Positions 38,448 to 44,046 of a stretch of DNA of 64,000 bases are shown here, one piece after another (the stretch's first letter is position 1; the number at the start of each line of letters is the position of its first letter). The notes under the pieces were generated by a model. The model saw only the letters and a program-made list of their open reading frames with translations. It ran no database searches and was not told the DNA's origin. This DNA is from Deltaproteobacteria bacterium (GTDB taxonomy: Bacteria > CG2-30-53-67). The stretch covers positions 62,001 to 126,000 of the forward strand of contig JAADIO010000005.1 of the NCBI GenBank assembly GCA_013151235.1. Reading direction: 5' to 3'. A program made the position numbers and the translations under genes.

Positions 38448-39803
38448 ATGGAAACCCGAAAAATATTAGTGGCCGACGACGACCATATCGAAAAGGAATC
38501 GCTGGCAACGATCCTGCAACGGGAGGGATACGAAACCATCACCGCCGGGGACGGAAAGGAGGCTCTCGAAAAAATTGAATCCACTCTTCCGGACCTCGTC
38601 CTCACCGACCTGAAAATGCCCTACCTGAACGGATTGGAACTCTTGACGGAGATCAAGTCAAAATATCCCGACATCGAGGTGATCATTATCACAGGCTATG
38701 CCACGGTCGAGTCGGCCATCAATGCCATGAAGGTCGGAGCAATCGATTATATCTCCAAACCCTTTAACGTGGAAGAAGTCAAAATCATCATCCGGAAGAC
38801 CCTCGAGCAAAAGGGACTCCGTGAAGAAAATGCACAGCTCAAAAAACAGTTGAAAGAACATTACGAGTTCCGGAACATTATCGGCAGCAGCCACGAAATC
38901 CAGGAAATCATTCGGGTCCTGAAAAAGGTCGTGGGCGGAATGAGTTCCGTCATGATTACCGGAGAAGAGGGAACGGGGAAAGAGCTGCTGGCCAAGACCC
39001 TTCACTTCAACAGCCCCCGGAAAGACCGCCGTTTCGTGACCCTCAACTGCGGCGCTTTCGAGGCGGAACAATTAGACGAACAGATCTTCGGTTCTCCCCG
39101 CGTAAAAGGGGCGATGGAGCAGGCCAACCGGGGCACTCTCTTCATGGACGAGATTGAAAATCTTCCTCTCAGCATCCAGGTCAAACTGCTGAAATGCATC
39201 AAAGACAAGGAACTGAGAATCCCCTGGAAAAACAAGGTGGTTCCTCTGGACATCCGGTTCGTCACCGCCACCACGGAAGATCTCGGACGGGAAACGGAAA
39301 CGGGGCGATTTCGGGAAGACCTCTATTATCGATTAACGGTCATCCCGATCCATATCCCTCCCTTGCGGGAACGACTGGAGGATATTCCCCTTCTGGTCAA
39401 TCATTTCATTCATACCCTGAATGAAGAGCACGGGAAGAATATTCATTCATTCTCTTCCGAAGCCCTCGATTTTCTAATGAAATACAACTGGCAGGGGAAT
39501 ATTACGGAATTACATAATGTCATGGAGCGGGCCGTGATCCTGACGGAGGGGGATGAGATCACGATCGACGTCTTCCCGGTCAGGCTCAACGAGGTTCGGG
39601 AAGAAGAGATCCTTGCCATCCCGAAGATCCCCAATGCAGGGATTCATCTTAAGGAAGAGGTGGAGAAATTCGAAACCAAGTTGATCAATCACGCACTCAA
39701 GCGCACCAACGGGGTGATTACCCTGGCGGCTGAAATGCTGAAACTCAAGCGGACGACCCTTGTGGAAAAGACGAAGCGCCTGAAGGATGTGATCCGGGTT
39801 TGA
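38448..39803 (+). CDS. NtrC-like response regulator lacking GAFTGA
   Basis: REC DLKMP; Walker A GEEGTGKE; QIFGSPRVKGAMEQ in place of the GAFTGA loop; HTH ending RTTLVEK. Confidence 0.88.
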   Translation: METRKILVADDDHIEKESLATILQREGYETITAGDGKEALEKIESTLPDLVLTDLKMPYLNGLELLTEIKSKYPDIEVIIITGYATVESAINAMKVGAIDYISKPFNVEEVKIIIRKTLEQKGLREENAQLKKQLKEHYEFRNIIGSSHEIQEIIRVLKKVVGGMSSVMITGEEGTGKELLAKTLHFNSPRKDRRFVTLNCGAFEAEQLDEQIFGSPRVKGAMEQANRGTLFMDEIENLPLSIQVKLLKCIKDKELRIPWKNKVVPLDIRFVTATTEDLGRETETGRFREDLYYRLTVIPIHIPPLRERLEDIPLLVNHFIHTLNEEHGKNIHSFSSEALDFLMKYNWQGNITELHNVMERAVILTEGDEITIDVFPVRLNEVREEEILAIPKIPNAGIHLKEEVEKFETKLINHALKRTNGVITLAAEMLKLKRTTLVEKTKRLKDVIRV

Positions 39804-39834: not shown

Positions 39835-40848
39835 GTGATGAAAGAACAATTCCAGATATCCGATATTATCGGAGAAACACGGGGAATCAAACTGGCCCGA
39901 CGGCTCGTCACCCAGGCGTCCAAAACGGAAACACCCGTGTTGCTCCAGGGAGAAAACGGGACGGGGAAGGGGCTGATCAGCAAGATCATTCACCACAACA
40001 GCAGCCGATCCAACAAACCTCTGGTGACACTGAACTGTGCCGGATGTAACGAGGAAACCCTACAGCAGGAACTTTTTTGTGAAGATGAGGAATTCAGGAA
40101 TGTTTTTCAACGGGCAGAAGGAGGCACCCTCTACCTGCAGGAAATCGATGCGATTCCCCTTTCCCTGCAGATTCAACTGTTGAACAGGATCAAAAAAGAC
40201 CCCTTCCGCAACAGCAGCAGTATCACCCGAATGATTCACCAGGCACGCCTGATCACCTCCACTGAGAAAGATCTGGAAAAACTGATCCGGAAGAAAAAAT
40301 TCCGGGAAGATCTCTATTATCAATTGAACGTCATCCAGATCTATCTTCCTCCGTTACGAAAACGGATCAAGGACTTTCCGATCCTGGCTGAGTATTTTCT
40401 CAACCAGGCCTGTGCCGGTCTCGGCAAAGCCCCTCCCAAAATCTCCGACGACCTTTATCCAACCCTCCGCTCCTATGAATGGATCGGCAACATTCAGGAG
40501 TTTGCCAATGCCATCGAGTTTGCAGCCAACATCGTCCCGGAAGGAGGAGAAATCACACCGGAGGACCTCCCGGAACATATTATTAATGCCAAGGGATATG
40601 ATATCGCCAACGAAATTCTCTTCCCCCAAAAAGGGATCGACCTGAAGAATGCCGTTAAAAAATTTGAACGGAACCTGATCCTCCAGGCCCTCGACCAAGC
40701 TGACGGGATCATCAGCAACGCCGCCGAGATTCTTCATGTCAAACGAACCACCCTGGTGGAAAAGATCAAAAGAGAAAAGATCAACTCCGAACGATTCAAG
40801 AAACGGCGCCGTCTTCGAAAGACCCTGAAAAAAAGGAAAATCTTCTGA
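39835..40848 (+). CDS. Degenerate AAA+-HTH enhancer-binding-like protein, no REC domain
   Basis: GENGTGKG; no GAFTGA; Walker B YLQE; DLYYQL; HTH RTTLVEK. Confidence 0.82.
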   Translation: MMKEQFQISDIIGETRGIKLARRLVTQASKTETPVLLQGENGTGKGLISKIIHHNSSRSNKPLVTLNCAGCNEETLQQELFCEDEEFRNVFQRAEGGTLYLQEIDAIPLSLQIQLLNRIKKDPFRNSSSITRMIHQARLITSTEKDLEKLIRKKKFREDLYYQLNVIQIYLPPLRKRIKDFPILAEYFLNQACAGLGKAPPKISDDLYPTLRSYEWIGNIQEFANAIEFAANIVPEGGEITPEDLPEHIINAKGYDIANEILFPQKGIDLKNAVKKFERNLILQALDQADGIISNAAEILHVKRTTLVEKIKREKINSERFKKRRRLRKTLKKRKIF

Positions 40849-41159: not shown

Positions 41160-41456
41160 TCAAACCGCTCTATGATTTCGTTCCAGAATACGGGCGATTG
41201 CATCCTCCTCACTCGATGCGGAGACGATTCCCATCTCACGGATCTTTGCAGAGCAACCCGGACGCTGCTGCCCGTCAAGCACCCATTGCGGAACAACCTT
41301 GCCCCGATCGGTCAGTTTCTTTTCCAGAAGCCGGAGGACCTCCGGCGAATGGCGAAAACCTCAACCGGAGAAATTCTGTTGCATGCTCCGGGCAAGGATG
41401 AAATAAACACCGCCGTAGAGAAGACCGACAGCAAGAATGATATAGAGCAATAACAT
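41160..41456 (-). CDS. Candidate small membrane-anchored selenoprotein, 98 aa, U at residue 32
   Basis: GGAGG RBS and ATG 3 nt after the upstream stop; MLLLYIILAVGLLYGGVYFILARSMQQNFSG-U-GFRHSPEVLRLLEKKLTDRGKVVPQWVLDGQQRPGCSAKIREMGIVSASSEEDAIARILERNHRAV; TGA 41361-41363 followed by a SECIS-like hairpin. Confidence 0.65.
41330..41346 (-). promoter_or_regulatory. Candidate bacterial SECIS
   Basis: GCCGGAG-GUC-CUCCGGC perfect 7-bp stem starting 15 nt after the UGA; apical AGGUC as in the E. coli fdhF SECIS. Confidence 0.65.
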
Positions 41457-41459
41457 GAT

Positions 41460-42149
41460 TCAGACCTCCATGGTTTCTCCGAATGTCAGGGAGCGGACCG
41501 TGATTCCCACGGACTCGGCCTCCCTCCGAAACAGGTCGGAATTCTCCGTCAGGACCGGAAAGGTCCCGTAATGCATGGGAATCACCAGCCCCGCTTTCAG
41601 AAAGCGGGCGGCATGGAGGGCATCCTCCTCTCCCATCGTATAATTTCCGCCGATCGGCAGCAGAGCCACATCGATCCGGTTCAGCTCTCCCAGGAGTTTC
41701 ATCTCCATCGAAAGCCCGGTATCCCCGGCATGATAAATCGTCTTTCCCTCCATTTCGATCAGGAACCCGCAGGGATTCCCGGTGTAGATCATCCCTTTGG
41801 AATCCGGAAAGCCCGACCCGTGAAGAGCGGACGTCAGTTTCACCAACCCGAAGGGGAAATTGAAACTCCCGCCGATATGCATCGTATGGACCTGCTCCGC
41901 ACCCTGCCGTTCACAGAAGAGCCCCAATTCAAAGGGGGCGATGATCGTCGCCCGGTTCCGGGCGGCAATCTCCACGGCATCCCCCAAGTGATCGGGGTGC
42001 CCGTGGGTGACCAGGACAAAATCGACCTTAACCGCCTCCGGAGCGATCGGCGCATTCGGATTGTCCCGCAGAAAGGGATCGACAATCAGTCGGGAGCCGC
42101 CCCCTTCAATGAGGAAACAGGAATGGGAAAGATAGGTCAATTGAATCAT
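41460..42149 (-). CDS. Metallo-beta-lactamase-fold hydrolase (UPF0173-like)
   Basis: SHSCF, THGHPDH, YHAGDT, LPIGGNYTM, IPMHYGTF. Confidence 0.9.
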   Translation of the reverse strand: MIQLTYLSHSCFLIEGGGSRLIVDPFLRDNPNAPIAPEAVKVDFVLVTHGHPDHLGDAVEIAARNRATIIAPFELGLFCERQGAEQVHTMHIGGSFNFPFGLVKLTSALHGSGFPDSKGMIYTGNPCGFLIEMEGKTIYHAGDTGLSMEMKLLGELNRIDVALLPIGGNYTMGEEDALHAARFLKAGLVIPMHYGTFPVLTENSDLFRREAESVGITVRSLTFGETMEV

Positions 42150-42164
42150 CGTCCACCTTTCGGA

Positions 42165-42653
42165 TTACGCCGTTGCCGTCAGAGTCAGAATCTGGTGAAG
42201 GGCATCCCGAGATCTCAGTTTTCCCTCCGATCGATTTTCAATCAATCCCGAAAGTTTCTGAACCATGGAAACCGTGGGTGACCAGGTGAACTCGTTCTGG
42301 AAACGCCGTTCCTTGAACCGCTTCGCCGCATCAATGACGTTTTCCTTCTCCTCACCCGGCAGAGGACGGACGGACGCCAGTTCAGCCGTCAATTGTTTTC
42401 GCTTCTCCCGAAATTTCGGATCGAGAGATCCCTGCGGTGTCAACTGACAACGTCGGAATTCGATGGCACGCACCTTCTCCGGCCTGGCTTTCCGAAAATG
42501 CAGATGGACAATCGCAATCCGGATGATCCGTCCTCCCAACTCCGGGAAGGCCTTCGAATCTTCTTCAGACAGAAACCGTTCATAAGTGTCGGCATCTACC
42601 TCGGAAAAAAGTCCTTCTTCATTCAACCGGAAAACCCATTTTCTGTTTTTCAT
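42165..42653 (-). CDS. Hypothetical protein
   Basis: 162-aa ORF with GGAGG RBS, co-oriented with downstream genes. Confidence 0.65.
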   Translation of the reverse strand: MKNRKWVFRLNEEGLFSEVDADTYERFLSEEDSKAFPELGGRIIRIAIVHLHFRKARPEKVRAIEFRRCQLTPQGSLDPKFREKRKQLTAELASVRPLPGEEKENVIDAAKRFKERRFQNEFTWSPTVSMVQKLSGLIENRSEGKLRSRDALHQILTLTATA

Positions 42654-42837
42654 TCATTCCTCCCGCCGCATAATCGCCATTATACCTTTTTCAGCAATAA
42701 GATCAAGTCAGCTTTTGGGTTGCCATTAATTCGGGAAATGCCTATGCTGTCAACAACGGTTTCACGGGGTCAAGAACGCTCCTGGACCGGAAAACTTGTA
42801 ACGACCGGGGAATCATTTAATGAAGAGAGGAGTTTAG

Positions 42838-44046
42838 ATGTTGCTTCCCGTCGGAGACACCCCCAACCCCAGGGGAACCCCCTACGTCAATTATCTCCTC
42901 ATCGGTATCAATATCGCCGTCTACCTTCTGGTGACCCTTCCCCTTTCAGCGGCCCGCCCGAACCCGACCGACCCGGTCCTGCTGGAATACGTCCGTGCCA
43001 TTCCCCAATACTGGAATCTCCCGGTGTCGGAACTGCTCCGCCACATCTCCTCCTATGATCTTTTCATCTTCACCCATGGTTTCAAACCGGCAGATCCCTC
43101 GGTGATGGATCTCTTCGGTTCCATGTTTCTCCATGCCGGATTTTTCCACTTGGCCGGAAACATGCTCTTTCTCTGGATCTACGGCGATAACGTGGAACAT
43201 CGCCTCGGGTCCCTCAATTATCTCTTTGTTTACCTCGCCACCGGGATGGCCGCTACCCTCTTCTTCATGCTGTTTCAACTCAGATCGACAACCCCCATGA
43301 TCGGGGCCTCCGGCGCCATCTCGGGGGTGCTGGGTCTCTACTTCCTCTGGTTCCCGAGAAATAAGGTCCGCGTCTTCGCCCTCCTCTTTCCCTTTTTCAT
43401 GGATATCATCCTCCTCCCCGCCCGGTGGGTACTGGGCTTTTTTCTCATCATTGACAACCTCCTCCCCTTTCTTTTTGCCTCCGGCGGGGGCAGCGGGGTC
43501 GCACACGGCGCCCACATCGGCGGTTTCCTGGCCGGTCTCGGAATCGCCTATACACTGGACCGATTCCCGGACATTCTGCGCCGTTCGAAACGGCGGTCCG
43601 GGCGTGCCCCGGCAGCGGAGCGCCCGGACCCCGGTGGTGAAGAAGAACTCTCACCGGAAGAACGGATCCATACAGCCCTCCTGCAGAATGACCGGAAAGG
43701 TGCGGCTTCCCTTTACCTGTCAATTCGGAACCGTGTCCAGCACAAAGAGATCGATCCTGCCGATCGTCTGGAGATCGGCCGTTACCTCTTGCGTGAAGGG
43801 AACTATCCGGCAGCCCTCTCCGTGTTCCGACAGTATATCTCGGACTTCCAGAACGGCCCGGACCTGGATCAGGCCTGCCTCGGCGCCGGGATTGCTCTCT
43901 ACCAAGCAGAGGGACAAATGACGGCATCTTACCAGTATTTCCTGATGGTTCTCGACGTCACGACCTCCCCGGCCATCGAAGCTGAGGCACGGCGTTACTT
44001 GCAGACCATCGAGACCATGCAGAAGACACGAATCAAAAAGGAATAA
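42838..44046 (+). CDS. Rhomboid intramembrane serine protease with C-terminal TPR-like domain
   Basis: HLAGNMLFLW, GDNVE, GASGAISG, AHIGGF. Confidence 0.92.
   Translation: MLLPVGDTPNPRGTPYVNYLLIGINIAVYLLVTLPLSAARPNPTDPVLLEYVRAIPQYWNLPVSELLRHISSYDLFIFTHGFKPADPSVMDLFGSMFLHAGFFHLAGNMLFLWIYGDNVEHRLGSLNYLFVYLATGMAATLFFMLFQLRSTTPMIGASGAISGVLGLYFLWFPRNKVRVFALLFPFFMDIILLPARWVLGFFLIIDNLLPFLFASGGGSGVAHGAHIGGFLAGLGIAYTLDRFPDILRRSKRRSGRAPAAERPDPGGEEELSPEERIHTALLQNDRKGAASLYLSIRNRVQHKEIDPADRLEIGRYLLREGNYPAALSVFRQYISDFQNGPDLDQACLGAGIALYQAEGQMTASYQYFLMVLDVTTSPAIEAEARRYLQTIETMQKTRIKKE

Follow-up and report, generated by a model that had tools for sequence, protein, structure and literature searches.

The DNA considered here is a window of 64,000 nucleotides (nt) from contig JAADIO010000005.1 of a Deltaproteobacteria bacterium, and the element in question is a short frame on its minus strand, at 41456-41160, which is interrupted by a single in-frame TGA. 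Very probably this frame is a genuine selenoprotein gene with a product of 98 residues, the founding member of an undescribed family. The features listed below, all on the minus strand and numbered from the first letter of the window, were taken from the minus-strand reading of the window's own genome (G000) together with a listing of its open reading frames (ORFs); selenocysteine is abbreviated Sec, or U in protein motifs, and bSECIS denotes a bacterial selenocysteine insertion sequence.

41160..41456, minus strand: candidate selenoprotein coding sequence, 98 codons (M1...U32...V98) followed by the stop TGA at 41160-41162, read from the frame and from orthologues with the same frame and TGA column
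41361..41363, minus strand: in-frame UGA, read as U32; the same column is TGA in 34 genomes and Cys in L066 and P0004
41330..41346, minus strand: bSECIS-like hairpin GCCGGAG-GUC-CUCCGGC with a perfect 7-bp stem, -11.5 kcal/mol
41391..41453, minus strand: predicted N-terminal transmembrane (TM) helix, residues ~2-22, with the invariant Tyr14; the best 19-residue Kyte-Doolittle window starts from residue 2 (mean 2.33)
41283..41303, minus strand: most conserved motif, G52-K-x-V-P56-x-W58, modelled by AlphaFold2 (AF2) with a predicted local distance difference test (pLDDT) score of 94-95
41253..41255, minus strand: Cys68, near-invariant (at least 90% in alignment A7, described below), candidate partner of U32
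41163..41252, minus strand: C-terminal extension of ~30 residues with two predicted helices, found in the alignments and the AF2 model only in the window's family
41465..41469, minus strand: GGAGG, a Shine-Dalgarno-like site that falls within the final codons of the upstream gene and precedes the ATG by 8 nt

The frame opens with an ATG at 41456-41454, runs through 31 sense codons to the TGA at 41363-41361, and continues for 66 further sense codons to the stop TGA at 41162-41160. The ATG lies 3 nt past the stop TGA (41462-41460) of a gene for a metallo-beta-lactamase (MBL)-fold hydrolase, and since the GGAGG falls within the last codons of that gene, translational coupling between the two is suggested. 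An initial annotation, made from the letters of the window, had described this ribosome-binding site, the spacing of the start codon and the sense codons on either side of the TGA, together with an N-terminal hydrophobic helix, a perfect hairpin starting 15 nt after the UGA and an open in-register antisense frame. The coordinates were all confirmed in the sequence, the helix agrees with both the hydropathy mean and an AF2 helix spanning residues 2-32, the hairpin is present at 41346-41330, and the antisense ORF (41172..41453, plus strand, 93 residues) is indeed open. Taken alone, the site in the window is within chance, and 66 open codons past a stop are not rare. It becomes significant because the TGA recurs in one column of 34 genomes and because coding conservation is found on both sides of it.

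The distribution of the in-frame TGA was followed with the read-through protein in a six-frame search of 60 relatives. A read-through protein with one in-frame TGA is encoded in G000, G001, G002, G003, G005 and G008, that is, in six of the nine genomes of the window's GTDB family (G000 counted), at identities of 49-78%, and the matches span both sides of the TGA. Two further metagenome-assembled genomes (MAGs) of the Nitrospirota contain a form of 75-81 residues with 37-40% identity and the TGA in the same column, which brings the aligned column to TGA in 8/8 sequences. A profile search at E<=1e-3 through a sample of 401 genomes of the phylum to which one of these MAGs belongs (Nitrospirota) yielded 31 matches, of which 30 were read; the Sec column of these 30 located matches is TGA in 28, Cys in one (L066) and decayed in one (L067). 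Among the 28 TGA-bearing copies, three are aberrant, having a frameshifted tail (L040), no Cys (L055) or an internal stop (L056). Altogether, 34 species-level genomes share the frame and the TGA column (6 of the window's family and 28 sampled Nitrospirota). A metagenome scan with the 8-row alignment added nine loci, eight of them with the TGA and the ninth cut by a contig end. The gene belongs to a family spread across Nitrospirota, mostly in a shorter form of about 64-70 residues; the single gene that had initially been proposed is real, but as one member of this family rather than an isolated case.

Some copies have been truncated or are being lost. Of the protein, the G004 copy retains residues 37-96 alone, preceded by an AT-rich region that is new; at this locus (L008, G004:C134, ~1440-1700) AT-rich sequence takes the place of the TM helix and the Sec codon, the hairpin is intact, and the C-terminal 54 codons are intact from MEEKL..., with the GGAGG of the hairpin 13 nt ahead of that ATG. 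A public protein of 54 residues, P0005, is near-identical to this truncated derivative. L067 (G213:C69), in a genome without SelA, is decaying, having additional stops besides the TAA/TAG that occupies the Sec column, and so is the L055/L056 lineage, through an internal TAA in L056 and loss of the Cys in L055. At L040 (G279:C19) the frame continues into a downstream outer-membrane-like gene, reaching 259 codons, a run-on that is probably a frameshift or an assembly error near the GQKK...C end.

Coding selection was assessed within the window's family, of which six sequences were compared. The pooled ratio of nonsynonymous to synonymous divergence (pN/pS) is 0.48 upstream of the TGA and 0.43 for codons 46-98, and in the latter stretch variable sites at codon positions 1/2/3 amount to 32/29/50 of 52. 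Over all 65 downstream codons, the third position varies in 57, the first in 34 and the second in 31, and the closest pair gives a pS of 0.63 and a pN of 0.10 downstream of the TGA. Protein-level selection acts on both sides of the TGA, so that the region past it, whose conservation had been an open point of the initial annotation, is conserved as coding sequence. The same counts bear on the idea that the real gene is the antisense ORF, or that the minus-strand frame reflects a pseudogene or a fault of assembly. In favour of the first idea stands the open antisense frame, but the minus-frame third positions that vary in 57 of 65 codons are the first positions of that frame, and a TGA that recurs in 34 independent genomes as well as in metagenome contigs argues against decay and against a read error alike; we give these options a negligible probability.

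The most conserved stretch of the protein starts one codon past the TGA (G-x-R-H-S-P-E-V-L-R-L-L-E-K-K-L), and the segment that separates the TGA from the conserved G-x-R-H-S-P-E-V-L block contains no in-frame start codon. When 1.84 billion representative proteins were searched exhaustively with a profile, just seven matches were obtained, six of which are fragments starting downstream of the TGA (including P0002, P0003 and P0005-P0007) and are most plausibly C-terminal pieces produced by gene finders. P0004 (73 residues), in contrast to these fragments, is full-length and encoded in one continuous ORF with Cys in the Sec column, as is the sampled Nitrospirota copy L066 (genome G314); both are classical Cys homologues. 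At residue 32, therefore, TGA is seen in 34 genomes and Cys in two sequences, and among these homologues none ends at residue 31 or carries Trp, Arg or Gly at this position.

These observations also bear on the simplest alternative, in which the TGA is an ordinary stop that ends a 31-residue hydrophobic peptide, the downstream stretch being a small gene in its own right or an RNA with a regulatory role. Gene callers read the site in this way, public sets hold only the C-terminal fragments, and the G004 form persists without helix and TGA, its frame intact from MEEKL.... Such a reading would leave the residues right after the TGA, the most conserved of all, without an in-frame start, and it is at odds with third-position-biased variation that carries on across the site, with two Cys homologues in one continuous ORF and with the presence of SelA in all 28 sampled carriers. 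It is accordingly regarded as highly improbable.

The machinery for selenocysteine insertion is encoded in the window's own genome, as the initial annotation had anticipated, with matches to SelA (533 bits), SelB (423 bits) and SelD (370 bits) and a tRNA-SeC. SelA was found in 193 of the 401 sampled Nitrospirota genomes and in 28/28 of the TGA carriers; G213, with the decayed copy, and G305, with a marginal match, are both SelA-negative. SelB is also present in the genome of the Cys form (G314) and in G004, G006 and G007. An intact gene is always accompanied by the Sec machinery. The genetic code is standard, since ordinary genes in these genomes end most often in TGA (65 of 114 long ORFs). 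As a separate observation, SelD of G000 is itself encoded by a selenoprotein gene outside the window (contig C53:16238-17158, L027), in which the one in-frame TGA is codon 11 of the match; a hairpin, GUCC-UUC-GGAC, comes after it, and its UUC loop differs from that of the window hairpin.

The hairpin in the window begins with the 15th nt after the UGA, which places its loop at a distance of 21 nt. Its 17 nt are identical in five of the six UGA-bearing copies of the window's family, and G003 and the truncated G004 copy differ only at the third loop base (C to T). Within this family, synonymous divergence falls to a pS of 0.39 over codons 33-45, compared with 0.68-0.71 in the flanks, and this drop indicates an RNA constraint atop the coding constraint. 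Other clades carry, at the same place, different compensated stems with G/U loops (UCGCCGG-AGGUC-CUGGCGA, GCCAAG-GGU-CUUGGC, CCCCUG-AGGU-CAGGGG, CCUC-CGUGA-GAGG). The AGGUC apical sequence of the window hairpin is also that of the E. coli fdhF element. In a scan for perfect stems of -5 kcal/mol or better within 16-37 nt, a hairpin was detected in 19/34 sequences; of 1020 control windows taken from these loci, 11.2% had one. RNAalifold recovered the 7-bp helix from eight sequences. The single Cys-form locus has no family-type hairpin (n=1). Under the bSECIS rule (PMC13188914), the distance between UGA and loop should be 16-37 nt, and G should be found in the first two positions of the loop; the window hairpin agrees with this (loop GUC, 21 nt from the UGA).

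A second alternative keeps translation through UGA32 and dispenses with selenocysteine: a near-cognate tRNA would insert Trp, Cys or Arg, or some other recoding would take place, with the hairpin as a generic stimulator. The inserted residue cannot be told from sequence, and several members have poor SECIS-like hairpins. The full Sec machinery, the exclusively SelA-positive carriers and the standard code nonetheless point away from this alternative, as do the restriction of sense replacements to Cys and the agreement of hairpin position and G/U loop with the bSECIS rule, and we assign it only a slight chance. We regard the gene, its recoded UGA, the conservation of the family and of the hairpin, the Cys homologues and the Sec machinery as well established by the comparison of genomes, and the 98-residue membrane-tethered Sec protein proposed initially is thereby supported.

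The architecture of the protein was derived from alignment A7, which comprises 33 sequences (31 Sec forms and two Cys forms) and served for both conservation and folding. Five positions are invariant in 33/33 (Y14, U/C32, G52, P56 and W58), and G33, P38 and C68 are kept at 90% or more. The Sec residue is embedded in S-G-U-G-F in the window protein, although the motif of the family is merely [L/G/P/A]-U-G. Most members have 58-74 residues and end at or just past Cys68, with which most short-form homologues terminate and which, in the window protein (41255-41253), is the sole Cys. The AF2 model on A7 is all-helical (mean pLDDT 82.8, predicted template modelling score 0.45), with helices at residues 2-32 (pLDDT 97), 38-50, 57-63, 68-75 and 83-96. 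Lys and Arg are more numerous after the TM helix than before it in 32/33 sequences, with means of 2.4 and 0.15, respectively. By the positive-inside rule, the Sec domain is predicted to be cytoplasmic, with the N-terminus outside.

A second Sec in a C-terminal 'CU' of the short forms was considered and rejected, as neither a conserved hairpin nor a conserved peptide follows that TGA, and TGA accounts for 65/114 ordinary stops. In homologues ending in Cys, the next codon is TGA in 17/19, an excess over the 57% TGA among ordinary stops, and it is read as a normal stop.

The candidate selenoprotein gene of the window lies last in a putative operon, the remaining features of which are the following.

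41460..42149, minus strand: MBL-fold hydrolase of 229 residues, the upstream operon partner (PF13483, E 2.4e-34)
42165..42653, minus strand: 162-residue protein of no known family (no Pfam match), first gene of the putative operon
42679..42706, minus strand: sigma-70-like promoter match TTGATC-16-TATAAT upstream of the 162-residue gene, 10/12, a consensus match only

The order of 162-residue protein, MBL-fold hydrolase (PF13483) and selenoprotein is kept in 5/6 loci of the window's family, the hydrolase gene adjoining the selenoprotein gene and the 162-residue gene remaining upstream of the hydrolase gene in each of these five. Convergent with the operon are two adjacent genes for sigma-54 activators, one of the response-regulator type (38448-39803, plus strand) and one with AAA+ and HTH_8 but without a receiver domain (39835-40848, plus strand). 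Divergent from it is the gene for a rhomboid-family membrane protease of 402 residues with a long C-terminal extension (42838-44046, plus strand).

In other contexts, the recurrent neighbours encode methionine-sulfoxide reductases. Seven related genomes (L048-L054; e.g. L049:837-1481) encode a signal-peptide MsrA immediately ahead of the selenoprotein gene and on its strand, and a gene for an MsrAB fusion is divergent from the selenoprotein gene in G005 and L065 (L015:1180-2283; L065:340-1434), adding up to nine loci from three lineages with msrA or msrAB as neighbour. These MsrA and MsrAB proteins are presumably periplasmic. No msrA was found within ~7 kb of the gene in the other 20 extended loci, and the link is therefore lineage-specific; in G000 itself, msrA is ~100 kb away. 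The association is suggestive of a role in oxidative-damage repair, although not a general one. Directly downstream of the gene, about ten loci encode a conserved signal-peptide protein of ~175-200 residues with an aromatic C-terminus (...IIF or ...AIIF), a conserved Cys pair (CxxxxxxC or C-x7-C) and no Pfam match (for example L016:4165-4767, L051:896-1423 and L046:950-1558), which may be a small outer-membrane beta-barrel. In two genomes, glgC genes lie nearby.

Several observations weigh against the interpretation as a functional selenoprotein with a Sec-Cys couple, or limit it. At the RNA level, the 86-nt fold around the UGA has a z-score of just -1.24 in the window alone, 15/34 sequences fall short of -5 kcal/mol and 4/34 have no hairpin under the strict rule, and RNAalifold on the 34 post-UGA segments gave no consensus pairs, which is attributed to stems that shift register between clades. 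Cys homologues number only two (L066 and P0004). G004, G006 and G007 have SelB, yet the gene is truncated in G004 and the six-frame search gave no match to the selenoprotein in G006 and G007, from which it follows that the gene is dispensable. Cys68 is Ser in G008 (L005) and missing in L055, which weakens an obligatory U-C couple. The neighbours vary by lineage (MBL hydrolase; periplasmic msrA with the small outer-membrane-like protein; glgC), and no relative in sequence or fold hints at a chemistry.

The searches for such relatives were extensive. Pfam gave no family match for all 33 members at E<=0.1, the window protein being scanned at E<=10, and NCBIfam release 20/TIGRFAM gave none for 33 members at E<=0.1 and six members at E<=1. 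A sequence profile search of the PDB returned only a chance match (3dd4, E 0.46), Foldseek against the PDB had no match at E<=0.001, the ESM Atlas yielded no score of 0.9 or more, and a word-indexed protein search at near length found no relatives. The one faint Pfam candidate, PF11524 (SeleniumBinding, a Methanococcus-type selenium-binding protein), aligned to residues 71-93 of the window protein only (E 0.23, 12.2 bits against a cut-off of 27.9); the match falls in the lineage-specific C-terminal extension and was rejected. Table 1 of a 2026 review (PMC13188914) lists 119 prokaryotic selenoprotein families or subfamilies, each with a Pfam, NCBIfam, cd or PTHR identifier, and none of those in that table fits the window protein in the Pfam and NCBIfam scans. 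Nothing comparable is described in passages of Haft and Gwadz (bioRxiv 10.1101/2022.07.06.499078), deep-Sep (PMC12013277) or BSepDB (PMC13326102), supplementary tables aside, and full-text literature searches found no description of such a selenoprotein family. The early statement that the protein belongs to no recognised family has therefore held within these sources, and we rate it as the product of an undescribed selenoprotein family that would use the known bacterial recoding mechanism.

As to how the protein is made and how it works, we infer SelB binding, the membrane topology, the U32-C68 redox couple and the nature of the substrate from the features above. Transcription of the operon would yield the 162-residue protein, the MBL-fold hydrolase and, last, the selenoprotein, the start of which would be coupled to the stop of the hydrolase gene. 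At the UGA of codon 32, the hairpin at 41346-41330 would recruit SelB with Sec-tRNA(Sec), selenocysteine would be inserted, and 66 more codons would be translated. The N-terminal helix (~2-22) is expected to act as a signal anchor, with the N-terminus outside and the remainder in the cytoplasm, and U32 would then lie where a continuous helix ends, about ten residues past the membrane surface. The outcome would be a membrane-tethered selenol in which U32 cycles with Cys68 through a selenenylsulfide, acting on a membrane-proximal oxidant or on a partner protein. This selenenylsulfide mechanism is put forward tentatively, at less than even confidence. The initial annotation had named the single Cys as a possible resolving residue; its near-invariance in A7 speaks for this role, and the Ser of the close relative G008 speaks against it.

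A genuine selenoprotein might also perform another chemistry, such as metal or metalloid binding, the carriage of sulfur or selenium at the membrane, or redox sensing for a partner. Cys68 is not strictly required, as its replacement in G008 and absence from L055 illustrate, the protein has no CxxU/UxxC motif or thioredoxin fold, the invariant G52/P56/W58 patch resembles a docking surface, and several selenoproteins are named as metal-binding in Table 1 of PMC13188914. Metal-handling genes, on the other hand, do not recur among the neighbours, and the recurrent msrA/msrAB (nine loci, three lineages) points to oxidative-damage repair. Such other chemistry is conceivable and, on balance, somewhat doubtful.

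The interest of the selenoprotein family lies partly in how it has been missed. The catalogue of bacterial selenoproteins has been built mainly from homology to Cys relatives and from annotated proteins, and this family escapes both routes because its members have fewer than 100 residues, the gene call is cut after 31 codons, Cys homologues are almost lacking and the hosts are uncultured Nitrospirota. Its recognition corrects the annotation of dozens of genomes, for which public sets hold only meaningless C-terminal fragments. The predicted architecture, a single-pass anchor with Sec at the membrane surface and neither a thioredoxin fold nor CxxU, is one that is unlisted for bacteria. With 64-98 residues, the protein would be a very small and tractable model for why some positions use Sec almost exclusively (34 genomes with Sec and two sequences with Cys), and its recurrent link to secreted methionine-sulfoxide reductases provides a lead to function.

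Compared with known systems, the protein is set apart from the thioredoxin-fold selenoproteins with CxxU or UxxC: as had been noted at the outset, it has no CxxU motif, with no Cys within three residues of Sec, and its model is all-helical with no Pfam match to a thioredoxin family. The precursors of the selenobacteriocin/selenobiotic model TIGR04081, which have the motif SGUG and two Sec (Table 1 of PMC13188914), are alike in small size and in the S-G-U-G of the window protein. That model, however, matches 0/33 members, the window family has one Sec instead of two, and no radical-SAM maturase was seen beside the window-family gene. For the recoding itself, the closest parallel is provided by SelB-decoded bacterial genes with an intragenic bSECIS, of which E. 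coli fdhF is the prototype; likeness extends to the UGA, the 3' hairpin, the sel genes and the Cys homologues, and the differences lie in the protein, which belongs to no listed family, and in Sec forms that far outnumber the Cys forms.

For the way in which the protein may work, the nearest analogue is found in SELENOK and SELENOS. These are small proteins with one N-terminal membrane anchor and a cytosol-facing tail with little globular structure, and in SELENOS the Sec forms a selenenylsulfide with a Cys far from it. They belong to another domain of life and use another SECIS type, no such Pfam family is among the matches of the window protein (E<=10) or of all members (E<=0.1), and the order of the residues is reversed, its Sec lying beside the membrane helix and its Cys at or near the C-terminus; the likeness is thus architectural only. 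It is an unlikely extension of this analogy that the family, Nitrospirota-wide and almost always with Sec instead of Cys, represents a bacterial functional counterpart of the eukaryotic selenoproteins K and S of the endoplasmic-reticulum membrane. A helix whose invariant Tyr lies mid-membrane would keep the selenol on the cytoplasmic side of the inner membrane, where it would form a redox relay linked to the repair of oxidative damage in the envelope. This extension leans on the co-operonic arrangement, in several lineages, of the gene with those for a secreted MsrA or MsrAB and for the small two-Cys outer-membrane-like protein, and, if true, it would constitute a new way in which anaerobes link selenium chemistry to the protection of membrane and envelope.

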